Of a stretch of 39,263 bases of DNA, positions 2,621-39,263 are shown one piece after another (positions within the stretch are counted from its first letter, which is position 1; each line of letters opens with the position of its first letter). Where the stretch lies: IMG/VR virus record IMGVR_UViG_2506520037_000005, positions 1 to 39,263 of that record. One strand, 5' to 3'. Made by a program: the position numbers and the translations under genes. The notes under the pieces were generated by a model that saw only the letters and a list, made by a program, of their open reading frames with translations, searched no databases and had not been told where the DNA came from. Source of the stretch: a virus (taxonomy: Duplodnaviria > Heunggongvirae > Uroviricota > Caudoviricetes).

Positions 2621-2732
2621 AACTGAAGTTGCCCTGAAAATGAAATTTTTTTGCACAACCGCAGAACTTTTCCGCAGGGCATCAGTCTTAATTAGTGCCA
2701 CTGCTTTTCTTTGATGTCCCCATTTTGTGGAG

Positions 2733-2776
2733 CCCATCAACCCCGCCATTTCGGTTCAAGGTTGATGGGTTTTTTG
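2733..2776 (+). terminator. Rho-independent terminator downstream of ybjL
   Basis: Perfect 10-bp inverted repeat cccatcaacc / ggttgatggg followed by TTTTTT. Confidence 0.6.
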
Positions 2777-2855
2777 TTGCCTGAAATTTAAGATGTTTAA
2801 AATCATGATGTTAGAAGCACTGTTTTTTAACGATGGCGACAAAATGGCGGCAGCG

Positions 2856-3074
2856 TCAAAGAGAGAGCGCCACCTGTCCTGATTTCATTGGATGCGGCTG
2901 AACTGGATTCGACTCTTTTGGTGTTGCAATCGAACGAACAAAAGTTTCATGGGTAACAAAAGTATGGCTGCAGTTAATGTTCTGGCACTGGTTATAACGC
3001 TCTTTGGTCAATGAAGATACCTGAAAACTGCTGCGAGTATGGGCGGCACTTCCACACAGTGGGCAAATCATCAT
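2856..3074 (-). CDS. ogr: Ogr/Delta-type zinc-finger late-gene transcription activator
   Basis: 72 aa from internal ATG (MMICPLCGSAAH...CQNINC); CxxC-N-CxxxxC zinc-finger pattern and position next to D as in P2. The longer ORF-track start is probably not used. Confidence 0.8.
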   Translation of the reverse strand: MMICPLCGSAAHTRSSFQVSSLTKERYNQCQNINCSHTFVTHETFVRSIATPKESNPVQPHPMKSGQVALSL

Positions 3075-8829: not shown

Positions 8830-10002
8830 TTACGCGCTGACCTGGCTGGCGAAATTCACCAGGTACTGATCGGTGATGCGCTGGCGCAGCATCAGATTTT
8901 CAAGTGGCGGCACTGGCGTGTAGTCATAGTCGATGGTGAGTTTTCCGGCTTTCAGCGTGTCTTTGTCGTTCACCGACTCATCCAGCCAGCAATCACCACC
9001 AATGAGATAGCCCTGACTGACCAGGCTGCGCATTTTGGCGCGGATACCTTCGATAATGTCGCGGGCCAGCGACGGGTTAAGCGGTTTATCCACCGCCCAC
9101 ATGTGTGCTTCTGCCATCGTGTCCATCAGCACCTGCGCCGTGCGGGTGTAGTTTTCGAAGGCAAAGAGCGGGTCATCACTCAGGCAGCGGGAACCCCAGA
9201 AGCGGAACCCGTCTTTACGCACAAGCGTGGTGACGTCGTTCTGGTTCAGCAGACCTGCATCGGTTGCCGGGTCCTGCAGATCCCAGAACACATCTGCAGA
9301 AATTCCGGTGACACCGTTCACGCCCACGTTGGACAGGCTTTTGTGCCATCCGGTCTGCTCGTCAATTTTGGCGCGCAGACCAAGCGCACGGGCGGTGGCA
9401 TATGCCGTTGCTTCGGCATTCAGCACCGTGTCCCAGCCAGTAAAGTCAGGCCAGATCAGCATCCCTTCGCGCTGGCTGAAGTTTTCACGGTAAGTGATCG
9501 CCTCCTGTACCGTCTTGCAGCCATACGCTGACAGGTAAGCAAACCCACGCAGGCTTTGCGCCACGCTCAGCAACTCAGTAGCTACCGCCTTGGTGTCGTG
9601 GCCTGGCACGCCGAGAATGCGCGGTTTAACGCCGAGCTGTGACTGGGCAGATAACAGGGCTTTCATACCTGTTTTTTTACCTTCAGCAGTCACTGCGCCG
9701 ATGATATTGGTCGTGGTTTCGTCTTCCGTTTCACCCTGCGGCACACGCACAACAACGGTCACGGGTTTTGCCTGGTCAGCGATGGCATCCAGCGAACGGG
9801 CCAGCGTGCCGGACTCACCCGCTTTACCGCTGGCAGTCAGCACATCAGTGATCAGCACGGGTTGATTAAGAGGAAACATTTTTGCATCGGCATCATCGCC
9901 CGTGCAGACCATACCCACGATGGCGGTGCTCACCGTGGTAATGGATCGGGTGCCTTCGTTGACTTCAACAACGCGCACCCCGTGGTGGTAATCCTGAGCC
10001 AT
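8830..10002 (-). CDS. FI: Tail sheath protein FI
   Basis: 390-aa ORF; P2 gpFI size and position; first gene of the F operon. Confidence 0.85.
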
Positions 10003-10078
10003 AGTGGCGAACCTCCTGATTGGATTAGGCTTCGCCCTATGTTGAAGTGATTGTGCCTGACAAACAGCTAAGCGCAGT

Positions 10079-10096
10079 TGTACCGTTATTCACACA
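10079..10096. promoter_or_regulatory. Candidate Ogr-binding dyad (TGT-N12-ACA) of late promoter PF
   Basis: TTGTACCGTTATTCACACAAA, centred about 85 bp upstream of the FI start codon; extended similarity to the dyad in the O/P intergenic region. Confidence 0.55.
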
Positions 10097-10144
10097 AAAT
10101 GACGGTATTTGTCTACTTGCAGGGATAATCAAAATAATGCTGAT

Positions 10145-10711
10145 TCAGGGGGATTCATTACTCTTATTTGCCGGAAATTTTCTATAAATTGTGGAAACAC
10201 CCACATCAAAAATCAGTGCAATACGCTGTCTTGATTCTCCGGCCTCGAGTAAGCGTCCAATCTGTGCCCACTGTTCGGTGGTCAACTTAGGACGGCGTCC
10301 ACCTACTCTGCCTTTGGCGCGAGCTGCAGCAAGCCCCGCCCTGGTACGTTCAACTATCAGTTCGCGTTCCATTTCAGCCAGGGCACCCATGACATGAAAA
10401 AAGAAACGGCCCATTGGGGTACTGGTATCAATACTGTCAGTCAGGCTTCGGAAATTCACACCTCGCTGGCGCAACTCTTCTATCAACGTAACAAGATGCC
10501 GCATACTGCGCCCCAACCTGTCCAGCTTCCAGACAACCAAAGTGTCACCTGCCGATAATGTCCTGAGCAGTTTTTTCAGTCCCGGTCTGTCGGACTTAGT
10601 GCCACTGATTTTGTCCTCAAAAATCCGCTCACATCCCGCGCAGTTCAGCGCATTACGTTGCAAATCGGTGTTCTGGTCATTTGTTGACACGCGTACATAG
10701 CCAATAAGCAT
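10145..10711 (-). CDS. Serine DNA invertase (Gin/Hin/Pin/Cin family)
   Basis: MLIGYVRVSTNDQNTDLQRNAL... with catalytic-serine motif and C-terminal HTH; near-collinear with Mu Gin as recalled. Real start is probably the ATG giving MLIGY (188 aa). Confidence 0.9.
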   Translation of the reverse strand: MLIGYVRVSTNDQNTDLQRNALNCAGCERIFEDKISGTKSDRPGLKKLLRTLSAGDTLVVWKLDRLGRSMRHLVTLIEELRQRGVNFRSLTDSIDTSTPMGRFFFHVMGALAEMERELIVERTRAGLAAARAKGRVGGRRPKLTTEQWAQIGRLLEAGESRQRIALIFDVGVSTIYRKFPANKSNESP

Positions 10712-10766
10712 GATCAATCCCCTGAATAAAAACCGGGGATGATGCCAGTTAGCCGTTATCTCTGCA

Positions 10767-10792
10767 TTTTCATAAACGTTGGTTTGGGAGAA
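10767..10792. other. Invertase crossover site, right (26-bp imperfect palindrome, gix/hix-like)
   Basis: TTTTCATAAACG TT GGTTTGGGAGAA; its right 14 bp are identical to the inverted copy inside gene H; lies 55 bp from the invertase start. Confidence 0.75.
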
Positions 10793-11122
10793 GCCAGATA
10801 TGTCATTCAGCGAGGAGCTAATGCCAATGGTGCATGGATACGCTGGTCAGATGGTGCAATAGAAGTATTTGGAACCGGTGGATCTAATGATAATGGACTG
10901 GCTAAAGTTGTTTACCCAATTGCACTGCCTAAACTTTCACGTTTTATCAGTATCGCGGAAAGAATAAGAACGGATTACGAGAGCACACCTAATAATGTTC
11001 ACGTTTCAATGATCGTGGATGATCAGGTAACAAATACCGGCTTTTATGCCCGCTGCCAGATGTACGACGGCAGACCATCATCAAATGCTTTTTCCTGGAG
11101 GGTTTATTGTGCGCCTGTTTAA
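10781..11122 (+). CDS. Promoterless alternative tail-fibre C-terminal segment (Sv'), expressed only after inversion
   Basis: The plus-strand ORF reads GLGE... in the same frame and from the same shared 14-bp core as the H gene; inversion would fuse the H constant part to this 113-codon segment. Confidence 0.6.
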   Translation, partial: GLGEARYVIQRGANANGAWIRWSDGAIEVFGTGGSNDNGLAKVVYPIALPKLSRFISIAERIRTDYESTPNNVHVSMIVDDQVTNTGFYARCQMYDGRPSSNAFSWRVYCAPV

Positions 11123-11141
11123 TCCAGTTACTTTGTAGTGG

Positions 11142-12398
<1,257 letters not shown>

Positions 12399-12535
12399 TG
12401 AAGTAATCCCCGGTCTTCATGACGTGACCGGGGCTATTGAATTACCGGAGGACAACTGGTTTTTTACTATGACAGAAATTCCTCAGGGCATGGAGCTAAC
12501 AATTAATGAGAAAGGCGAACCAATACTAATTGAGG

Positions 12536-13141
12536 TTAATCAGTCTCAGGGAATACAGGCCAAATAATATCAGGCGCGGTGCTGGTATCTGTTGCCGTCA
12601 CCGCGTCAGTGTAATCCAGCACAGCGTTAAGCCGGGTTGTTTCTGCCTGCGTCAGTTTCCGCCCGGCCTGTAATTTCAGCTGAATCAGACTAATGGAAGC
12701 CATTGCTGCATCAATCAGTGACTGACGCTGTGCTTCTGCCGCTTCTACTGCGGCACCGTGTTGTGCCTCAGTATCCGTCACCCATTTCTCACCATCCCAT
12801 TTATCGTATGGCGTTAATGGGGCGATAGTGGTTGTATTATCAGGGTAATTACCCGGAGCTGTGATTTCTTTTGATTCTCCTGTTGCGGTGCTAAAGACGA
12901 TTTCACCGCGATGGTCTGGCACATATTCCCATGAGTTAAAATCTGCAGAACGGCAGATTGTATAACCAGCTTTGTATGCGCCTGGAGCATCTAAACAGGA
13001 ACATGCCGGAATGCCGACACCAACGGCAAGATATTCAGTCGATATGGAAATATATTCCCGTGTTTCACCATCATAATTATAGACAGTAATATTCCCCGCC
13101 TTCGTGGCAATAAACTCGCTATTTAATACAGTGCTATCCAT
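12536..13141 (-). CDS. G: Tail fibre assembly protein (gpG/Tfa)
   Basis: 201-aa ORF immediately downstream of the tail fibre gene with 1-bp overlap. Confidence 0.8.
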   Translation of the reverse strand: MDSTVLNSEFIATKAGNITVYNYDGETREYISISTEYLAVGVGIPACSCLDAPGAYKAGYTICRSADFNSWEYVPDHRGEIVFSTATGESKEITAPGNYPDNTTTIAPLTPYDKWDGEKWVTDTEAQHGAAVEAAEAQRQSLIDAAMASISLIQLKLQAGRKLTQAETTRLNAVLDYTDAVTATDTSTAPDIIWPVFPETD

Positions 13142-14655
13142 TATGCAGCCCTCACAATGTAGTTAAATGCGATGTTGCGTGGACGGACACCGAAATAAGA
13201 AGTAACACCATTCATTGTCAAATTTCCAGAGCCAAAAGCGGTAAAACCAGAACCAGCATTAACTGCCGAATCCGCGTTTCTGACAAAGTTTTTGGGAGGT
13301 GAACCGGAGACACCAGCCGAAATATCATCAGCATTACCGCCATTGCCGTGGTGGTTAGTTATCTTTGTTTCCGCCTGCGCCGTCAACAAACCTCGTCCAG
13401 AGTCAACCCCGCGCCCGTCATCCCAGCCGCGAATAAACTCACCACGTAAATCAGGCAATTTATTTGCCGGATAAGCCTTTGCCAGTTCCGGGTATTCTTC
13501 AGCAGAAAAAGCCGCGCCGTTGCATTTCAGCCAGCCTGTTGGCGGAGTGGCGGAAGGCCATGGAACAGGGACACCAACGGGTAATGCAGAGCCTTCTCCC
13601 AAACCAAGGTATGCGAGAAGACCAGCTACATCCTTTCCACTCAAATTGGTAAGCGTATTGTCCAGCGGTTGTTTACCTGCCAGCGCATTAAGCATTGTCG
13701 TGGCAAAGTTCGGATCATTCCCCAGTGCCGCCGCCAGTTCGTTCAGTGTATCCAGTGCCGCAGGTGCAGAACCCACCATTGCTGCAATCGCTGATTTCAC
13801 AAAAGCTGTAGTGGCAATCTGTGTATTGTTGACCGACTGTGCCGCAGTAGGTGCTGTTGGCGTTCCGGTGAGTGCCGGACTCGACAGCGGTGCTTTTAGT
13901 GCCAGCGCATTGTTAATGGTGGTACTGAATTTCGGGTCATTGTTAATGGCTGCGGCAATTTCTTTCAGTGTGTCCAGCGTGGCTGGCGCACCGTTAATCA
14001 GAGCAGTAATAGCGGCCTGAACAAACTCAGTGGTCGCAATCCGCGTGGTGTTATTTCCTGCTGCAGGCGTCGGCGCTTTTGGTTCTCCGGTAAATGTCGG
14101 ATTATGTTTCTGCGCATACTGGGTATGAGGATCTTGTGCGGCAATGTGGTTTCTCATCTGGTCATCCACATACAGCTTTAATTCCAGGACTTCATCATCC
14201 ACGTATTTACGGGTTGCCAGCACTACAGCAGGGTCGATTTTCAGGGTGATATTGTCCGTACTGCTGGTAATCAGCACCATGCGCACGGTCTGGGTGCGCC
14301 CGCTGCCTTCAGCCAGTTGCGGCTTATAGCTTTCCGGGCAGTTGCCCACGGCAATCAATGCCCCGGACTCATCAAACAGGCCCACTTCACGTATCCACCA
14401 ACCGCCCTCGTTTTCAGGGATCACCTGTTCAGCAATAATCTGGCTGCTGTTCTGCGGGTCGATATAAAGCATATTCAGCGCAGCCCGGCGTTTCTCATTT
14501 ACCAGTGCCGTCTGCTTTGCGTCCGGCGTTGGCAATACTCCGCCGCCATCGCCCACCGCCATATGGGTAATTTTTAGCGGCACACCGAGCGCGGCGGCGC
14601 TGGCAAGTTTCGCCGCGCCAATATCCGTCAGCAGGGTATAAAATTTTGTGCTCAT
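13141..14655 (-). CDS. H: Tail fibre protein H (constant N-terminus plus invertible variable C-terminus)
   Basis: 504-aa ORF with repeated alanine-rich motifs (AAAINNDPKF / AAALGNDPNF) and a WLKCNGAAFS...YPELAKAY fibre tip; a crossover site lies within it. Confidence 0.85.
   Translation of the reverse strand: MSTKFYTLLTDIGAAKLASAAALGVPLKITHMAVGDGGGVLPTPDAKQTALVNEKRRAALNMLYIDPQNSSQIIAEQVIPENEGGWWIREVGLFDESGALIAVGNCPESYKPQLAEGSGRTQTVRMVLITSSTDNITLKIDPAVVLATRKYVDDEVLELKLYVDDQMRNHIAAQDPHTQYAQKHNPTFTGEPKAPTPAAGNNTTRIATTEFVQAAITALINGAPATLDTLKEIAAAINNDPKFSTTINNALALKAPLSSPALTGTPTAPTAAQSVNNTQIATTAFVKSAIAAMVGSAPAALDTLNELAAALGNDPNFATTMLNALAGKQPLDNTLTNLSGKDVAGLLAYLGLGEGSALPVGVPVPWPSATPPTGWLKCNGAAFSAEEYPELAKAYPANKLPDLRGEFIRGWDDGRGVDSGRGLLTAQAETKITNHHGNGGNADDISAGVSGSPPKNFVRNADSAVNAGSGFTAFGSGNLTMNGVTSYFGVRPRNIAFNYIVRAA
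13594..13619. other. Invertase crossover site, left (inside gene H)
   Basis: TTCTCCCAAACC AA GGTATGCGAGAA, an inverted copy of the site at 10767-10792 with a matching central dinucleotide. Confidence 0.75.
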
Positions 14656-16158: not shown

Positions 16159-16504
16159 TCTCTGCTCCTGTTGATACGGAAAGGGAAACAGGCACACCGT
16201 TATTCCGCCGCCCGGTCAGCTCCACCACCATAGAACCGTCAAAGTTGCTGTTGATGGTGATGGAATCCAGCGTCAGCCGTGGCTCCCAGCGACTCAGCGC
16301 CACATACACTGCCGACATGACCTGCAGGCGTAATGCCGGATTTTGTGGCTGATCTATTAAAACCGACAGGAGGGAACCATATTCCCGGCGGGCAATGCGG
16401 CTACCCTGCGGTGTCAGCAGAATGTCCCGCACCGACTGGCGCAGATGATCAATATCAGTAATGACTTTGCCGCTGGTATTGTTCATCCCGCTATAAAGCG
16501 TCAT
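16145..16504 (-). CDS. W: Baseplate protein W (gp25-like)
   Basis: 119-aa ORF between V and J. Confidence 0.85.
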   Translation of the reverse strand: MTLYSGMNNTSGKVITDIDHLRQSVRDILLTPQGSRIARREYGSLLSVLIDQPQNPALRLQVMSAVYVALSRWEPRLTLDSITINSNFDGSMVVELTGRRNNGVPVSLSVSTGAENGSD

Positions 16505-17079
16505 ACCGGGCCTCCGGTTGTATCGCCGCCTTTCAGGACGCCAGTATGCTGATGCGCATCAACCACAATCCCGTTAGAACTCATCGCACCGCCGCCCTGG
16601 GTAACGCCACCATTGATCACTACTTCGCTGTTAATTCGCGTGCGGTCAGCCTCCAGCACAAACTCACTGGTTTTCATGGTGATATTGTCAGCGGCCTCAA
16701 TGACCATTGATTTGATGCCCCTTACATACCAGCGCCCGGTGGCGGGTTCGTATTCAAACCAGCTACCGTCAGGATGTTCTGTCACGCAGGCGTCCGCCGA
16801 CGTCGACGGTGGTGCGAACTGATTCGAATAGACAGCGGGCAGCGCAAAGGCAGTCTCCAGATTACCGCCCAGACTCAGCAGCACCACCTGCTCACCTTCC
16901 GATGGTCGCCACCATGTGCGGGCATTACCGGCACGCAGCGTCAGCCAACTGATCCAGTTAGTTTCAAGGTCGCCCGTTTTCACCCGGCAAAGCCAGTTCT
17001 CCCGGTCCACTTCGGTGACTACACCAGTGCGGATCAGATTGGTGATAAGGCGCATGATTTCAGTCAGTTGTGCGTTCAT
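16501..17079 (-). CDS. V: Baseplate spike protein V
   Basis: 192-aa ORF similar to P2 gpV as recalled. Confidence 0.85.
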   Translation of the reverse strand: MNAQLTEIMRLITNLIRTGVVTEVDRENWLCRVKTGDLETNWISWLTLRAGNARTWWRPSEGEQVVLLSLGGNLETAFALPAVYSNQFAPPSTSADACVTEHPDGSWFEYEPATGRWYVRGIKSMVIEAADNITMKTSEFVLEADRTRINSEVVINGGVTQGGGAMSSNGIVVDAHQHTGVLKGGDTTGGPV

Positions 17080-17125
17080 AAGTTGATTTTATTTGTACTA
17101 TTTGTATATTTATATCCACTTTCCT

Positions 17126-17143
17126 TGTGACATTAACTACACA
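17126..17143. promoter_or_regulatory. Candidate Ogr-binding dyad (TGT-N12-ACA) upstream of V
   Basis: TTGTGACATTAACTACACAAAAA, centred only 55 bp from the V start codon, so assignment to PV is uncertain. Confidence 0.4.
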
Positions 17144-17147
17144 AAAA

Positions 17148-18071
17148 ATGACAACTAACACCAATACCCCAGAAGCAGCTGAGCAAGATAATATTGTCCC
17201 CATGGATGCAATGAATGATCCCATCAATCCCCCACCTACAAAGAAGGAGAGGGATGAATACAAAAAAAAACAGCAAGAAAGAATTGGCAAATACGTCGTT
17301 GGTGGAACAGATTTGGGTGGAAACACCATAAGTAAAATTTATTCACGTGGGGATGAATATGTCATTTATGAAGTAGCCAATCTTCCGCCTCATGAGTCTA
17401 TGCTCGTGTTCATAGACTCAATCATTGAGGAGGATGACAGTAAGATTGATAGATATCATGCTTCAAAAGAGCACTTTGATGAGTTTATTTCACATTGCTA
17501 CAAATACAACTGCTCTTCTATTTATAAAAAAAGAGCAGCAACAGTTATGTCAGCAACAATACTTGGAAAAAATGATATAAACAAAAATAACTTCGCCGCA
17601 ATAAATAGAGACATTAAAAACGATTATGAAAACACAATGCTTGGAAGGAATTTATATCAATCAGGAGCCATAACTTTAGCATTGATATTCATCATCCTTG
17701 CATTGATAACATATTTGGCTAGAGATTCTAATTTCATAAAAGCTAATCACTTTATTCCAGTGGTGTTATACGCCGCTTCCTTTGCTTCCATCGGGGGGTT
17801 TATTTCTGTATCCCTAAAAATAAAAAGCCTCCATACAGACAGAGAACTAAAAAAGAAAACTTATTTCTTCTATGGTGCGGAGAGAATACTCCTTTCAATG
17901 ATGGCTGGCGTACTTGTATACTTTATGCTCAAGGGGAATATTATCTTCGGGTTTATGAATAATAGTAGTGACATCTCATTCTCCATTTATGTGATTTGTG
18001 CGCTTTCTGGATTCAGTGAAACATTGATACCGAATACATTGAGAAACCTTGAAACCAAATCCGAAATTTAA
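17148..18071 (+). CDS. Hypothetical membrane-anchored protein (soluble N-terminal region plus four predicted TM helices), opposite strand to the late genes
   Basis: AT-rich ORF inserted between V and S; own terminator downstream; possible -35/-10 (TTGATT/TATATT) upstream. Start is ambiguous between GTG 17127 and ATG 17148, and no Shine-Dalgarno is seen. Confidence 0.6.
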   Translation: MTTNTNTPEAAEQDNIVPMDAMNDPINPPPTKKERDEYKKKQQERIGKYVVGGTDLGGNTISKIYSRGDEYVIYEVANLPPHESMLVFIDSIIEEDDSKIDRYHASKEHFDEFISHCYKYNCSSIYKKRAATVMSATILGKNDINKNNFAAINRDIKNDYENTMLGRNLYQSGAITLALIFIILALITYLARDSNFIKANHFIPVVLYAASFASIGGFISVSLKIKSLHTDRELKKKTYFFYGAERILLSMMAGVLVYFMLKGNIIFGFMNNSSDISFSIYVICALSGFSETLIPNTLRNLETKSEI

Positions 18072-18080
18072 ACGCATTAA

Positions 18081-18111
18081 TTAGAGTGGCAATTATGTCA
18101 CTCTAATTTTT
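18081..18111 (+). terminator. Rho-independent terminator after the V/S-intergenic gene
   Basis: 8-bp perfect stem ttagagtg / cactctaa followed by TTTTT. Confidence 0.6.
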
Positions 18112-18126
18112 ACTAGCTTCGAAGTG

Positions 18127-18573
18127 TTAATTTGTAACGACTCTAAATATCATATCTTGAATGAGCTTAATTACTTCAGCATTTATCCCTAACAGCCGTC
18201 TCTCTGCATAGTGTACTCGCGGACCATTACGACTGACGCGATCACGCAGGCCGTAGTGATGAACACGGGCAATGCGCTGTACCTTACCTTCAAACTGCAC
18301 GCTGGCAGAATCGGCGCTGGCGGCAGTTTTCAGGTATTTTGTGGTGCGAAGCTTTGTAAACATCTGACGTTTGATGCGCCCCTTTTTACTGCGTGCTGTT
18401 ACCCTTCGCGGTTCATAGCTGCTGCCATCAGGATTACGCTGCATCCTGATGTTCTGCTGCTGTGTCCGGCGAAGTTCCTGCGCCAGCTGGCGCATCATGC
18501 TGCTTCTCGTGGCTGGTTCCAGATTCGCCAGCAAGGCACTCAGCCAGTCGTCCACCTTCTGCAGTTCAGCCAC
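18127..18573 (-). CDS. S: Tail completion protein S
   Basis: 148-aa ORF in the P2 gpS position. Confidence 0.8.
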   Translation of the reverse strand: MAELQKVDDWLSALLANLEPATRSSMMRQLAQELRRTQQQNIRMQRNPDGSSYEPRRVTARSKKGRIKRQMFTKLRTTKYLKTAASADSASVQFEGKVQRIARVHHYGLRDRVSRNGPRVHYAERRLLGINAEVIKLIQDMIFRVVTN

Positions 18574-24002: not shown

Positions 24003-24020
24003 GCGCGGTATTTGTACCGA
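24003..24020. promoter_or_regulatory. Candidate Ogr-binding dyad (TGT-N12-ACA) in the divergent O/P late-promoter region
   Basis: TTTGTACCGACAACCACACAAACC in the 142-bp gap between the divergent O and P genes; the only such dyad in that gap. Confidence 0.55.
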
Positions 24021-24076
24021 CAACCACACAAACCGCAGGCGGGGAAAGCCTTCATTCAAGGCTGTAGGTTTGTGCC

Positions 24077-26908: not shown

Positions 26909-28690
26909 TCATTTAAAACGTGTTGCAATATCTGCTGCTTCGATAACTGTTGCTTTTACGGTATTATCGCCAGCACGATAATAAATATCCCCATCATAAC
27001 TAGAATAAGATGCTAGAAGTGGAATTGTAATAACTATAACTCCATAACCATAAAAGTCATTATAGTCAATCAAACTCACCACTTGTGATTTAAGAGGCTC
27101 ACTCAAAGCAGATTTTTTCAACTCATCGCAAAAACGTCTATAATATTCTTCCATTGATATGCCGAGTTTAATAGCTTCTCTTTTAACACCAACAACACTT
27201 CTCTCACCAACTACATGTGCATCTATATCATCAAGCTCTTTTACTCTACTTGTATCACTTGGTTTATCTGTTACACCAAGCAATAACTTACCAACTACAC
27301 CGTTCTTGTTACCTTTACCGATGTTAGCAATAGCACAAATTGTGGAGAATATTTTCTCATGAATGCCATCATCAATAGTTCGCTCTCCGCCTAACATCAA
27401 CAAACCCTGTTTCAGTTCATAATTTGCAAGCTCTATTTCAGATCTTCGTAAAATATCCTCAATATCCACCGTATTGTGAGAATTATAGATATGACTGCTA
27501 TCGGCGCTATCAATAAAGTTATCTTTAATCAAGCCTATGATAGAATTAATATTCTTTCTTCTCTCTTCCCCACCAGTAGCAGATCTTTTAGTATCTAGTC
27601 GAGTGACTATATTATTAAGATTGTCTTTTACACCTTTATAATTATTAATCTTCTTATTTTCTTTAATGAGTAATTCATGAAAAGCAATAAATAACACAGC
27701 AAATATGGCTGGGAAAGCATTTGTAGTACGTTTAGTAAAGATTAAATCCCTGAGTTTAATTTCACCGTCACTATTACATACTTTTGTTATTTCCTGGATG
27801 CAGAATTTAAACTCTTCTGCAAATTTTCCTTCACCATAAACATTAATAGCAGAGCTAATACGACTATACTCTTCATCTTCATTATTATAAATCTGATCAA
27901 GCGCATCTTTGGAACGATCTATTAACTTACCTCCAACAATACAAGCTGCTATATCTGCAATGCATTGCTCATCCATACTGTCACGAAGGTCTGTTGAACG
28001 TAAGATCCCATGTTTTACCCAAAATACTTCTTCCGACTGAATTTGGTAACCATGTTTAGTTAGTGGCAAATCAATGCTAATAGACGGCATTTGCTCTAAA
28101 AGCAATATGTCGTCAGATACATCCCCCCTGATAGAACAGGCAATATCCCTAACCATATTTGAAAATTTATTTTGTATACCAGCCTGGCGCCTTTCTTGAT
28201 CACTAAGTCTATGCCCGTATGTATTAATTCTATCAAAAACATCATTTATTTCGTTCTCAGTCGCATTACGCATAATGGACATTGCAAGAGAATAATCCAA
28301 TAACTGAGTAACCTCACGCTGACTTAAAAGATTATCAGCTTTCACTGCAACAAACTTACCTTCATCCGCTCGATTTTTCGCTGTGGGAAAAGCGTCCAGA
28401 TTAAAACGTTTTCCATCAAGTGATTCATATCCTGTTTCGATGAAAGACATTATTGCATGTAATCTTTGTAGGCCATCAATTATTTCATATGTGCCAGGAT
28501 CATTTTCCCTTTCCGCGAGAAGAACTGCAGGAATTGGATATTTTTTTTGAATGGATTCAATTAATTTTTGTTTCTCTATTGCAGTCCAAACTAATTTTCG
28601 TTGATAACGTCTATTAACAAATATCTTACCTTCAGTAAACCATGAATAAATAGTTTGTATAGAAGTTGTTTGCGGTAATAGTTCAGCCAT
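26909..28690 (-). CDS. DUF262 (ParB-like nuclease superfamily) protein, 593 aa, candidate anti-phage defence protein
   Basis: N-terminal DUF262 signature motifs (NRRYQRKLVW; IIDGLQRL, a DGQQR variant); AT-rich codon usage; lies in the Q-to-A variable region. No recognisable HNH motif in the C-terminal half. Confidence 0.7.
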   Translation of the reverse strand: MAELLPQTTSIQTIYSWFTEGKIFVNRRYQRKLVWTAIEKQKLIESIQKKYPIPAVLLAERENDPGTYEIIDGLQRLHAIMSFIETGYESLDGKRFNLDAFPTAKNRADEGKFVAVKADNLLSQREVTQLLDYSLAMSIMRNATENEINDVFDRINTYGHRLSDQERRQAGIQNKFSNMVRDIACSIRGDVSDDILLLEQMPSISIDLPLTKHGYQIQSEEVFWVKHGILRSTDLRDSMDEQCIADIAACIVGGKLIDRSKDALDQIYNNEDEEYSRISSAINVYGEGKFAEEFKFCIQEITKVCNSDGEIKLRDLIFTKRTTNAFPAIFAVLFIAFHELLIKENKKINNYKGVKDNLNNIVTRLDTKRSATGGEERRKNINSIIGLIKDNFIDSADSSHIYNSHNTVDIEDILRRSEIELANYELKQGLLMLGGERTIDDGIHEKIFSTICAIANIGKGNKNGVVGKLLLGVTDKPSDTSRVKELDDIDAHVVGERSVVGVKREAIKLGISMEEYYRRFCDELKKSALSEPLKSQVVSLIDYNDFYGYGVIVITIPLLASYSSYDGDIYYRAGDNTVKATVIEAADIATRFK

Positions 28691-35968: not shown

Positions 35969-36058
35969 GGTGCAACATTCCTTCTTTAATTCGGCTTGTG
36001 GCGAGCCGTTGTTTATCGTGATTAGTTGTGAAGGCTCCAAAAGAAGACTTCGAGGTCA

Positions 36059-36088
36059 ACTTTAAGATCGCTTTTGGAATCTGTCAAT
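36059..36088 (-). promoter_or_regulatory. Candidate early lytic promoter pR (-35 TTGACA, 17-bp spacer, -10 TAAAGT)
   Basis: Consensus -35 and acceptable -10 read on the minus strand upstream of apl, in the face-to-face position expected for a 186-type switch. Confidence 0.45.
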
Positions 36089-36114
36089 GCAATTTAGATT
36101 GTTTTGGAGGACTC

Positions 36115-36678
36115 TTGAATTTCAATAGCGGCGGAAAGAAAGTGATTGAACGTTTGGTTGAGGCGTATGGTTTCACCACTCGTCAGGCCCTTTGCGACCA
36201 CTTAGGGGTTTCAAAGAGCACAATGGCAACCCGCTACATGCGTGACATTTTTCCAGCAGATTGGGTACTTCAATGCGTTGTAGAAACTGGTACTTCAATT
36301 GATTGGCTGGTATCAGGGAAAGGTGAGTTAAAAACCACAGCAGTCAACTCTTTGGTAGACGTTGAAACTCGCGAACTAAAAAATGGAGAGGCTATTGCAC
36401 TTGGAACGCACAAGATTGATCCAGTCTTTCTTCTCAATGAAATAAAATCTGCATTAGCGATAAAAATTAACCAACATGTTTACATTTGTGACCGAGAAGA
36501 CACTACCATTTCTGATGGTCAATGGTTGGTGGATATAGAAGGAAAACTGAGTATTAAAAAAATCAATTTGATACCAGTCAAAAGAGCAATGGTATCTGGG
36601 GATGGTTTTTCATTTGAATGTGATATTAGTGATATAAAACCTATAGCTAAGGTTCATACCGTAATCAGTGAGGCTTAA
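36115..36678 (+). CDS. cI: CI-type immunity repressor (186 CI-like, N-terminal HTH)
   Basis: HTH segment (TTRQALCDHLGVSKSTMATRYMR) and about 190-aa size. Start is uncertain: the ORF opens at 36028, but an in-frame TTG at 36115 follows a GGAGG. Confidence 0.7.
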   Translation: MNFNSGGKKVIERLVEAYGFTTRQALCDHLGVSKSTMATRYMRDIFPADWVLQCVVETGTSIDWLVSGKGELKTTAVNSLVDVETRELKNGEAIALGTHKIDPVFLLNEIKSALAIKINQHVYICDREDTTISDGQWLVDIEGKLSIKKINLIPVKRAMVSGDGFSFECDISDIKPIAKVHTVISEA

Positions 36679-38130
36679 ATGGATATTGAGTGGAATTGGG
36701 ATCAAGATGACGAATTTCTTGGTGAAAAATTACCTGCAGATACATTGGACAGAAAAAAGTACGCAAAATATCTTTATGAAATCTGTGCTGCACGCGGTGC
36801 TAAATCCAATCTCGTAGTTAACATTAATGCGGAATGGGGGGCTGGAAAAACATATTTTACTAAACGCCTAGCCAAGACAATTTCCCACTACCATCCCACA
36901 ATATACATTGATGCTTGGAAAGAAGATTTTACTGAAGACCCATTGCTCACAGTATTTAGTGGAATTAAAGATCAATTATCTGGTCAATCTGATAGCTTTA
37001 CTGCTTTAATCAATTCAACAATTGAGAATGTCGGTCCTTTGCTAAAAACAGCGGCACCAGTTATTATTGATGGATTAATACAAAAGTTCACAGGGGTTGA
37101 CTCCTTTTCTAACCTAACTAAAGACTTATCATCTAAGCTAATAGAAATACACGCAGAAAAATCAACGAGAATAGAGACAGTAAGAAAAGGAATTAGTCGT
37201 TGGGTTGAATTCATTGGGCGAAAAGATGGAATAGATAAAGAGCTTCCATTATTTATAATAATTGATGAACTTGATAGATGTAGGCCCGATTTTTCCATTA
37301 GTCTTTTAGAAATCTCCAAGCATATTTTTAACATCCCTGGCGTAGTATTTATTATTGCCACTGACACCCAACAATTACAGCATTCAATAAAAGTTATATA
37401 TGGCACTAATTTTTCAGCAAGTCATTATCTAAGCAGGTTTTTTGACCGTCGATTCCTTCTCCCAACGCCAGAATACAAAGACTTACTATTAACAAAAACA
37501 GGTGAAAACATAATTTCGGAATTTAATTCTTTACGTGAAAAATTAATTCCATGCCCACAAGACATCACATCATTTGTTAAAAATTGTTCATCCATATTAT
37601 TATCCATAAAAATAAACATCAGAGACGCTGTAAAAATATACGAGAGGCTAATAGACATACTTATCACGTCAAATAAAACATTTGACCCCAATCTAATGTT
37701 GATATTATCTGCATTTAATTTCAAAGATCATGATGTATATGCAAAAATAAAATCAAAAGAAAAGCTAATTCCTAGTCCTCTCAACACAGAAATAGATTTA
37801 TCATTTGATTTATCTTATGAAACTACACAAGTCAAGTACTTCCAAGCTAATGGTGGTGTTTATAGTAATACGTATAAACAAAAAGAAATTTCAACAAATG
37901 TTCTATTTTACATAGAGACTGCTTGGAACACCTTAACGATAGCAAGAACCGCACCTGTTGGCACGCGACCTTACAATACTCCAGAACTTTGGATGGAAGG
38001 AGAGTTGTCTCAGGAGGAATCATTAGCGAACTTTCTCAAAATGGGATACGCCAAAAGCCGGTACAATGAAAGTGAACTAAAAATTCATCAATATTTCGAT
38101 TTAATTGAACTGAGCACAACATTTGATTGA
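36679..38130 (+). CDS. KAP-family P-loop NTPase (PifA-like), candidate phage-exclusion protein
   Basis: Walker A EWGAGKT and the KAP-type Walker B FIIIDELDRCRP; ATG follows the cI stop codon directly; AT-rich. Confidence 0.75.
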   Translation: MDIEWNWDQDDEFLGEKLPADTLDRKKYAKYLYEICAARGAKSNLVVNINAEWGAGKTYFTKRLAKTISHYHPTIYIDAWKEDFTEDPLLTVFSGIKDQLSGQSDSFTALINSTIENVGPLLKTAAPVIIDGLIQKFTGVDSFSNLTKDLSSKLIEIHAEKSTRIETVRKGISRWVEFIGRKDGIDKELPLFIIIDELDRCRPDFSISLLEISKHIFNIPGVVFIIATDTQQLQHSIKVIYGTNFSASHYLSRFFDRRFLLPTPEYKDLLLTKTGENIISEFNSLREKLIPCPQDITSFVKNCSSILLSIKINIRDAVKIYERLIDILITSNKTFDPNLMLILSAFNFKDHDVYAKIKSKEKLIPSPLNTEIDLSFDLSYETTQVKYFQANGGVYSNTYKQKEISTNVLFYIETAWNTLTIARTAPVGTRPYNTPELWMEGELSQEESLANFLKMGYAKSRYNESELKIHQYFDLIELSTTFD

Positions 38131-38210: not shown

Positions 38211-39263
38211 ATGGCAGTACGAAAACTCGACACAGGTAAATGGATATGCGAATGCTACCCCGCCGGGCGCAGCGGACGGCGTGTGCGTAAGCAATTCGCC
38301 ACCAAAGGTGAAGCGTTAGCATTTGAACGGCACATAATGGAGGAAACTGAAGCTAAGCCCTGGCTGGGTGAATCGGTAGATCGCCGAACTCTGAAAGACG
38401 TCGTTGAACTCTGGTTCAAACTGCACGGCAAATCTCTGACCGCTGGCGAGCATGTTTACGACAAGCTGATCCTGATGGTCGAAGCTCTCGGAAATCCCCT
38501 CGCCACCGATTTAACATCCAAAATGTTCGCGCACTATCGCGATAAACGCCTGACAGGAGAGATCTACTTCAGCGAGAAATGGAAGAAAGGAGCAAGCCCG
38601 GTCACTATTAATCTGGAGCAAAGCTATCTAAGTAGTGTTTTTAGCGAACTATCCCGCCTGGGCGAATGGTCGTATCCGAACCCACTGGAGAACATGCGAA
38701 AATTCACCATCGCAGAAAAAGAGATGGCATGGCTTACCCATGAGCAGATTGTTGAATTGCTGGCTGATTGCAAACGTCAGGACCCAATTCTGGCACTGGT
38801 AGTTAAGATATGCTTAAGCACAGGCGCACGCTGGCGTGAAGCCGTAAATCTTACCCGCTCGCAGGTGACCAAATACCGAATTACCTTTGTAAGAACGAAG
38901 GGGAAGAAAAACAGAAGCATCCCTATCAGTAAAGAGCTTTACGAAGAGATCATGGCGCTTGATGGGTTCAATTTCTTCACAGACTGCTATTTTCAATTTT
39001 TATCCGTGATGGAAAAAACGTCTATCGTGCTGCCTCGCGGTCAACTGACACACGTTCTGCGCCATACGTTTGCGGCGCACTTCATGATGTCGGGTGGAAA
39101 CATCCTGGCCTTACAAAAAATTCTCGGACACCACGATATAAAAATGACTATGCGTTATGCGCATCTGGCACCGGATCATCTGGAAACGGCGCTCCGTTTC
39201 AATCCTCTGGCAACATTGCCAAGTGGCGACAAAGTGGCGGCAGCGGTTGGCATTACCCCGTAA
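38211..39263 (+). CDS. int: Tyrosine integrase (P2/186 family)
   Basis: 350-aa ORF; C-terminal catalytic region with R...HxxR...Y (VLRHTFAAH...MRYAHL); stop codon is the last 3 nt of the window. Confidence 0.9.
   Translation: MAVRKLDTGKWICECYPAGRSGRRVRKQFATKGEALAFERHIMEETEAKPWLGESVDRRTLKDVVELWFKLHGKSLTAGEHVYDKLILMVEALGNPLATDLTSKMFAHYRDKRLTGEIYFSEKWKKGASPVTINLEQSYLSSVFSELSRLGEWSYPNPLENMRKFTIAEKEMAWLTHEQIVELLADCKRQDPILALVVKICLSTGARWREAVNLTRSQVTKYRITFVRTKGKKNRSIPISKELYEEIMALDGFNFFTDCYFQFLSVMEKTSIVLPRGQLTHVLRHTFAAHFMMSGGNILALQKILGHHDIKMTMRYAHLAPDHLETALRFNPLATLPSGDKVAAAVGITP

Follow-up and report, generated by a model that had tools for sequence, protein, structure and literature searches.

A gene for a predicted membrane protein at the S–V junction of a P2-type prophage of Escherichia coli W, a candidate for anti-phage defence

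The accessory gene and its cassette

Positions 1–39,263 of IMG/VR record IMGVR_UViG_2506520037_000005, 39,263 nucleotides (nt), are referred to below as the window. This stretch corresponds to the P2-type prophage Rybb*W at rybB of Escherichia coli W, plus some host DNA at its left end. Between the tail genes V and S this prophage carries an accessory gene on the opposite strand, which codes for a predicted inner-membrane protein and which is considered here as a possible stand-alone defence gene. The locus contains the following features:

16501–17079, minus strand: gpV (baseplate spike), left flank; Pfam Phage_base_V, E 4.9e-18, and the Apex motif
17081–18172: variable AT-rich cassette with the pV promoter region, the accessory gene, a hairpin and the 3′ end of S, delimited by blastn breakpoints
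17083–17110, plus strand: candidate sigma-70 promoter of the accessory gene, TTGATT-16-TATATT, 9/12 match
17086–17091, minus strand: putative −10 element (TAAAAT) of the late promoter pV, overlapping the −35 hexamer of the accessory-gene promoter
17126–17143: Ogr-type activator box TGT-N12-ACA of pV, found by pattern search; it is part of the 5′ leader of the accessory gene, the ATG of which follows after 5 bp
17148–18071, plus strand: accessory gene, 307 amino acids (aa) from the ATG; RefSeq WP_001350048.1, "hypothetical protein"
18079–18108: 13-bp hairpin, candidate shared terminator between the convergent accessory gene and S
18127–18573, minus strand: gpS (tail completion), right flank; Pfam Phage_tail_S, E 1.1e-40

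The open reading frame (ORF) is intact; a preliminary description of this stretch had given a frame of 307–314 aa on the opposite strand of an AT-rich insert. It covers 17127–18071 (314 aa) from an alternative GTG start at 17127, or 17148–18071 from the ATG at 17148, which is the RefSeq start and is backed by a 74%-identical allele. GC content is 0.34–0.40 over 17000–18200 compared with 0.55–0.58 in the flanks. An 89-aa antisense ORF (17060–17329) was judged to be incidental, and an Rfam scan of the region revealed no RNA family. Inside the accessory ORF, terminator-like stem-loops with a T-run are located at 17759–17799 on the plus strand (4 found, 0.8 expected from shuffles), just upstream of the GGFISVS codons and partly overlapping them. 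This cluster is probably incidental; it could also attenuate transcription.

The borders of the cassette were taken from blastn comparisons with phages that have an empty site or another cargo. Up to base 17080 gpV is 95–97% identical to its sister phages at the nucleotide level; homology stops exactly at 17080/17081, beside the V ATG, and restarts only at 18173–18236 within S. The exchanged unit thus includes the pV region and the last 15–35 codons of S. The AT-rich opposite-strand segment of about 1 kb reported before is real, but the segment that is swapped is larger and takes in the pV region and the 3′ end of S. The variable part of gpS runs from 18127 to approximately 18172–18235, and the C-termini vary by cassette (RVVTN, EWLKE, RYVNK and DWFVK among the window and loci L004, L007 and L095). 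Since the 3′ end of S lies in the swapped segment, the C-terminus of the essential S protein tolerates wholesale replacement and a recombination boundary is located inside the coding sequence. Divergence of flank and cargo is uncoupled: the window and L007 share 95% of V nucleotides and 63% of cargo nucleotides, while the window and L110 share 85% of V and 92% of cargo at the amino acid level. This argues for cassette exchange.

The sequence of the possible sigma-70 promoter named in the preliminary description is present, with its hexamers at 17083–17088 and 17105–17110. The pattern TTGA(T/A)(T/A)-16-TATATT, including the 16-nt spacing, is kept in the alleles L004, L007 and L008, the proteins of which are only 60–75% identical, and the element is absent from the pV region of the empty site. 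The TAAAAT at 17086–17091, read from the sequence, is a putative −10 element of pV; its placement with respect to the V ATG and the Ogr-type box agrees with the pV annotation of P2. The centre of the box itself is 55.5 bp away from the V ATG; P2 annotates its activator site at the same place, and the empty-site phage 500465-1 has a TGT-N12-ACA box approximately 56 bp from the V ATG. Such boxes are not enriched in the window (8 found, about 10 expected). Three of the eight are located at late-promoter positions of P2, namely at 10079–10096 (pF), at 17126 (pV) and at 24013–24030 (pO/pP intergenic region), and the pF box lies about 85 bp from the sheath-gene ATG compared with 83 bp in P2. Because the accessory ATG follows only 5 bp after the Ogr-type box, the cargo promoter must lie inside pV.

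Downstream of the gene, the hairpin at 18079–18108 has a folding energy of −15.9 kcal/mol on the plus strand (z −4.05; none of 200 shuffles was as stable) and of −14.8 kcal/mol on the minus strand (z −4.23). A strong hairpin is thus present where a clean terminator had been described earlier, but a consensus scan did not call it terminator-like and the U-tract looks short in the sequence. Each diverged allele has its own hairpin, different in sequence, between the ORF and S, and the P2 annotation places a terminator after S.

The S–V junction as a cargo site and the family of the protein

To describe the junction in close relatives, 80 IMG/VR loci with a gpV at least 97% identical to that of the window were surveyed; S and V were both found in 76. 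The junction is empty, with a length of 68–69 bp, in 60 of these 76 (approximately 79%), which supports the accessory nature of the cargo. The other 16 contain inserts of 553–2,247 bp, of about ten different kinds, and the gene of the window is present in only one. Every insert has a GC content of 0.31–0.36, and all cargo genes are encoded on the strand opposite to S and V. The commonest occupant, found in 5 of the 16 occupied loci, is a DUF6216 membrane protein. One sister phage carries a PARIS pair (AriA, E 2.2e-38; AriB, E 2e-21), others carry ApeA (E 1.4e-13; the copy in L027 is split by a frameshift relative to that in L025), and an FRG-domain protein at the site matches the candidate system PDC-S15 (E 8.5e-32). 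The further cargos are unassigned proteins, some of them membrane proteins, including small ones of 146 and 250 aa without an enzymatic domain.

According to the preliminary description, canonical P2 lacks a gene at the S–V junction, which is incorrect: P2 (NC_001895) encodes Orf30 (P2p15, 9439–10224) at exactly this place. Orf30 is nonessential and is located on the opposite strand; in the P2 annotation it is flanked by the putative terminator of the O operon, which follows S, and by the activator-binding site of pV. Phage Cartapus has yet another gene between S and V, and phage R18C a different ORF at the orf30 locus (PMC6823313). The position is therefore not an unusual one for cargo, as had been claimed, but the orf30 locus, which together with the TO region (tin/old) and the Z region (Z/fun) is one of three named loci of horizontally acquired genes in P2-like phages (PMC3091744; also PMC6823313). 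Two large hotspot studies were confined to the TO and Z/fun sites, and made no use of the S–V site (Rousset 2022, PMC9122126; Vassallo 2022, PMC9519451); a hotspot-annotation preprint treats the TO and Z/fun sites plus a third site beside the CI repressor gene. Homology of the accessory protein to P2 Orf30 was rejected (best BLASTP E 7.1 over 43 residues), so that position alone is shared, and no homology to the Cartapus gene was found. Altogether, the cassette is almost certainly horizontally acquired, single-gene "moron" cargo at a known hotspot.

The accessory protein has four hydrophobic segments at residues 173–191, 205–223, 243–265 and 276–294 (19-mers with Kyte-Doolittle values of 1.6–2.55), preceded by a soluble N-terminal region of about 170 aa. 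Topology and AlphaFold2 (AF2) predictions thus agree with the architecture given in the preliminary description, a soluble N-terminal region followed by four C-terminal transmembrane (TM) helices. The loop between TM2 and TM3 carries five lysine or arginine residues, which predicts an integral inner-membrane protein with N- and C-termini in the cytoplasm; the periplasmic loops are short in this topology. In the AF2 model the TM segments are helical and the pLDDT is 80.7 for the full protein and 90.1 for the N-domain; residues of approximately 30–170 (about 140 aa) would form a cytoplasmic alpha/beta fold of unrecognised type. Near-invariant polar or small residues mark the four-TM module: GG..S in TM2, R246 at the start of TM3 and GFSE..P (GFSETLIPN) at the end of TM4, for which the topology predicts a position at the cytoplasmic end of the helix.

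No known domain could be assigned, as had been noted before: searches against Pfam, PADLOC, PHROGs and NCBIfam gave no match, only noise with E values of 0.04–0.17. A Pfam search with 118 diverse family members returned nothing beyond four weak YLATT matches, a PDB profile search gave no matches, and the best Foldseek result against BFVD had an E value of 0.21, which is no match. Neither a toxin-like or enzymatic fold nor similarity to transporter or channel families was recognisable. A profile search for domain-swapped relatives with the C-terminal module only returned just seven fragments or short relatives.

A word-indexed search identified 42 full-length relatives with 26–92% identity in Enterobacterales, Vibrio, Bowmanella, Burkholderia, Rugosibacter, Flavobacterium and Hymenobacter. 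An exhaustive profile search matched 2,793 cluster representatives at E≤1e-3, 1,098 at ≤1e-10 and 165 at ≤1e-30; of the 150 cluster representatives among the matches listed, almost all have a length of 250–310 aa. As judged from these matches, the protein belongs to a widespread, unannotated family of about 2,800 sequence clusters that spans Proteobacteria, Campylobacterota and Bacteroidota. Across the 118 diverse members Y74, G216, S220, R246, G288, F289, S290, E291 and P295 are at least 90% conserved, and closer relatives share the motifs GDEYVIYE, GGFISVS and GFSETLIPN. Loss of the intact frame in related prophages had been named beforehand as an outcome that would speak against the gene; the frame is intact in every relative examined. 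Between the P2-borne alleles non-synonymous divergence (dN) is 0.17–0.33 and synonymous sites (dS) are saturated, which indicates purifying selection. The ORF very probably codes for a real, selected membrane protein.

All enterobacterial copies are located at the S–V site in the same orientation, including E. coli alleles of 92%, 74% and 60% identity and a Citrobacter allele of 63%. The same is true of all six IMG/VR copies, with gpV proteins 65–100% identical to that of the window. The gene is rare, being found at 10 loci in 100,044 species genomes and 6 times in 2.9 million viral contigs; it was present in none of 50,697 GenBank phage records. Among 5,426 complete E. coli genomes, 11 carry the region of interest at 100% identity, namely W and its derivatives and a few chicken, bovine and human isolates. 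Two genomes of about 4.83 Mb labelled "DH5alpha" (NZ_CP026085.1 and NZ_CM135829.1) carry the cassette of the W prophage at 100% identity, which suggests that they are mislabelled strains of the W lineage and not K-12 derivatives.

In settings other than P2-like phages the gene stands alone: the 100 ORFs that surround it at 12 non-P2 loci include no conserved neighbour save two type-III-like methylases. The GC content of the homologues is usually below that of their surroundings. One distant homologue is located in an integrative element with TrbL, a type IV secretion system protein and repA, one in an integrase island with a Bpu10I restriction-modification system, and one beside an integrase, a type III restriction-modification system and an AAA_15-DUF4435 (PARIS-like) fusion. 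Another lies next to a methylase, DUF488 and a YaaC-like protein, and a further one in an integrase island with an AbiJ_NTD4 neighbour. Defence genes recur at the S–V site and around distant relatives.

Proposed function and alternative readings

We propose that the accessory gene is a stand-alone defence gene expressed in the lysogen, the product of which combines a cytoplasmic sensor and a membrane effector, and we assign this reading a probability of about 0.42. An anti-phage role of some kind is favoured by association with PARIS, ApeA and FRG/PDC-S15 at the site and with the neighbours of the homologues; an abortive mechanism acting on the membrane is a tentative proposal. It is unlikely that the complete picture holds, that is, a new phylum-spanning family of single-protein abortive-infection systems in which a sensor of unseen fold gates a four-TM pore and the promoter is wired to the Ogr switch.

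According to this proposal, the cytoplasmic domain would sense a cue of infection, and the TM module, probably oligomeric, would then depolarise or permeabilise the inner membrane so that the infection is aborted. The S–V site has a late transcription unit on either side, the O operon with its last genes (...R, S) and the V operon, which depends on Ogr, and cargo always reads away from V on the opposite strand. Cargo placed in this way would be insulated from late transcription, and a sigma-70-type promoter of its own could drive its expression in the lysogen. The accessory-gene promoter and pV would overlap back to back, with the Ogr box inside the leader of the gene. As RNA polymerase would be unable to occupy both promoters at once, the cargo would be on in the lysogen and occluded once Ogr activates pV; firing of pV in the late phase of the prophage would thus shut the accessory gene off.

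Several observations weigh against the proposal. Matches of 9/12 to the promoter consensus are not above chance in the AT-rich stretch (3 found, 4.2 expected), although the hexamers and their spacing are kept in diverged alleles, and no Shine-Dalgarno sequence is present upstream of the ATG. The 30 C-terminal residues, which hold the most conserved motif, have a pLDDT of only 44–48. PADLOC-DB v2.0.0, a library dated 2023, contains no family that matches the protein at E≤1, and longer relatives have no informative fusions to known sensor or effector domains in Pfam. The argument from location is weak, as the S–V site also holds membrane proteins without an assigned role (P2 Orf30, DUF6216), and P2 hotspots likewise hold cargo unrelated to defence, for example partition systems and cytolethal distending toxin. 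Apart from the distant homologues described above, the remaining ones are found in housekeeping or undistinctive surroundings. The exclusion or abortive infection suggested in the preliminary description is plausible by association, but literature searches for the protein accession and for S–V morons found no functional study and no phenotype of defence, exclusion or toxicity; the genome paper of E. coli W remarks on nothing of note in the prophages of the strain.

The main alternative is superinfection exclusion, in which a membrane protein of the lysogen blocks entry of the incoming genome without killing the cell; the protein might interfere with the conduit formed by tape-measure or ejection proteins or with a host membrane factor. 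HK97 gp15, P22 SieA and T4 Imm are known examples of membrane proteins with such a role. A prophage moron with an inner-membrane product and an apparently lysogen-type promoter would fit here, as would the lack of a recognisable toxin-like or enzymatic fold and the fact that several S–V cargos are small, non-enzymatic membrane proteins (P2 Orf30, DUF6216 and those of 146 and 250 aa). However, exclusion proteins are usually narrow and phage-specific, whereas this family spans Proteobacteria, Campylobacterota and Bacteroidota and is also found in non-prophage islands near restriction-modification and Abi-type genes. A conserved, well-folded cytoplasmic domain of 140 aa together with short periplasmic loops likewise suits intracellular sensing better. 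We regard exclusion as a clearly minor possibility.

A similarly low probability is given to a membrane protein for lysogenic conversion or host fitness that is unrelated to defence, for instance a channel, a transporter accessory or an envelope-stress or signalling factor travelling as generic mobile cargo. No defence model matches the protein, some homologues are embedded among ordinary genes and the partition systems and the toxin of other P2 hotspots are precedents for such cargo. The absence of similarity to transporter or channel families does not fit this explanation, nor does the very rare and patchy distribution (11 of 5,426 E. coli genomes, 10 loci in 100,044 species genomes and 6 in 2.9 million viral contigs). 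In addition, the GC content of the gene is lower than that of its surroundings, and the co-residents of the site and the neighbours of distant homologues are repeatedly defence genes.

It is improbable that the gene serves the lytic cycle of the phage itself or conflicts between elements, for example in lysis timing, counter-defence or action against P4-type satellites. The location in the late-gene region, near the lysis cassette and beside the Ogr-controlled pV, would be in line with this, and holins and antiholins are membrane proteins, too. The gene is, however, encoded on the other strand than all late genes and has a candidate sigma-70-type promoter and a hairpin of its own, it has homologues in non-phage islands, and its absence from 60 of 76 near-identical phages shows that it is dispensable for phage growth. 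That the ORF is decaying or non-functional in AT-rich junk DNA is effectively refuted: although the promoter match is not above chance, the annotation is merely hypothetical and the prophage has an IS3 insertion at its tail-fibre gene, homologues are intact and full-length down to 26% identity in several phyla, synonymous sites are saturated at a dN of 0.17–0.33, the motifs are invariant and the AF2 models are confident.

If the accessory gene is a defence gene, it would add a system that acts on the membrane, is as compact as one gene of 0.9 kb and comes from an unannotated family, and the S–V (orf30) junction would be a third productive site in P2-like phages for the mining of defence genes. 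It would also have a bearing on the phage sensitivity of the production strain E. coli W, which is safe and serves both the laboratory and industry. The overlap of cargo promoter and pV suggests a simple means by which a prophage could silence its own defence cargo in the lytic phase.

Other features of the prophage and comparison with known systems

Further genes in the window bear on the attachment site and the repressor region of the prophage:

2700–2778, plus strand: RybB small RNA gene, adjoining the ogr end of the prophage
2856–3074: ogr, at the prophage end facing the RybB gene
36028–36678: CI-type repressor gene, preceding a gene for a KAP family P-loop NTPase

The RybB gene is located directly beside the ogr end, which confirms rybB as the attachment site. 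The KAP family P-loop NTPase gene (36679–38130, plus strand) follows the CI-type repressor gene immediately and is itself followed by a long ORF (38211–39263); it looks like cargo of the repressor/integrase-side hotspot mentioned by recent hotspot surveys. A protein with a GmrSD restriction-endonuclease domain (26909–28690, minus strand) adjoins the portal gene, which is the classical old/tin (TO) hotspot. At the Z/fun position, a DNA invertase of the recombinase family (10145–10711, minus strand) lies beside oppositely oriented copies of tail-fibre and tail-fibre-assembly genes (approximately 10740–12000), which suggests that this position holds an invertible host-range switch rather than defence cargo. 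The tail-fibre (H-like) gene (13264–14655, minus strand) has an insertion on its 3′ side, an IS3-family element (12067–13244, plus strand) with an Rfam isrC match at 12201–12323. Because of this insertion the Rybb*W prophage may be defective for adsorption; its cargo genes are still intact.

The closest counterpart in position is P2 Orf30. Both genes are located between S and V on the opposite strand, diverge from pV and converge on S with a hairpin or terminator in between, and both are nonessential and AT-rich with predicted membrane products. They differ in architecture, as the hydrophobic segments of Orf30 are N-terminal, central and C-terminal. With the TO and Z/fun hotspots the S–V junction shares a fixed site between conserved genes at which unrelated AT-rich cargo, much of it anti-phage, is swapped. 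PARIS, which was first validated from P2 hotspots (Rousset 2022, PMC9122126), is also present at the S–V site of a sister phage. The difference is that the S–V site usually holds a single gene and is empty in approximately 79% of the close relatives surveyed.

The putative layout of candidate promoter, gene and candidate terminator inside the tail-gene region, with a predicted inner-membrane product, resembles that of the HK97 gp15 moron. Morons of this type lie in the tail-gene region and give an inner-membrane exclusion product expressed from the prophage. HK97 belongs to another phage group, and the accessory protein is unrelated to gp15, is much larger, has a conserved cytoplasmic domain and belongs to a family that is also found outside phages.

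SLATT and YLATT domains are reportedly, from analyses of the Aravind laboratory, membrane effector modules predicted for conflict systems. As in SLATT/YLATT proteins (PF20303), a short multi-TM module is joined to variable cytoplasmic domains in mobile, defence-associated genes. Weak YLATT matches were found in 4 of the 118 family members (best E 2.7e-4) and none at E≤1 for the protein of the window, and SLATT/YLATT modules have three hydrophobic segments whereas this family has four.

In the Rex system of phage lambda, a cytoplasmic sensor and an inner-membrane effector with four TM segments, both expressed from the prophage, act together to depolarise the cell. The accessory protein resembles RexA/RexB in combining a cytoplasmic part with four TM segments. 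Homology to RexB was rejected (hhalign probability 0.2). The two parts are encoded by two genes in lambda and would be united in one chain here, for which depolarisation is proposed by analogy.

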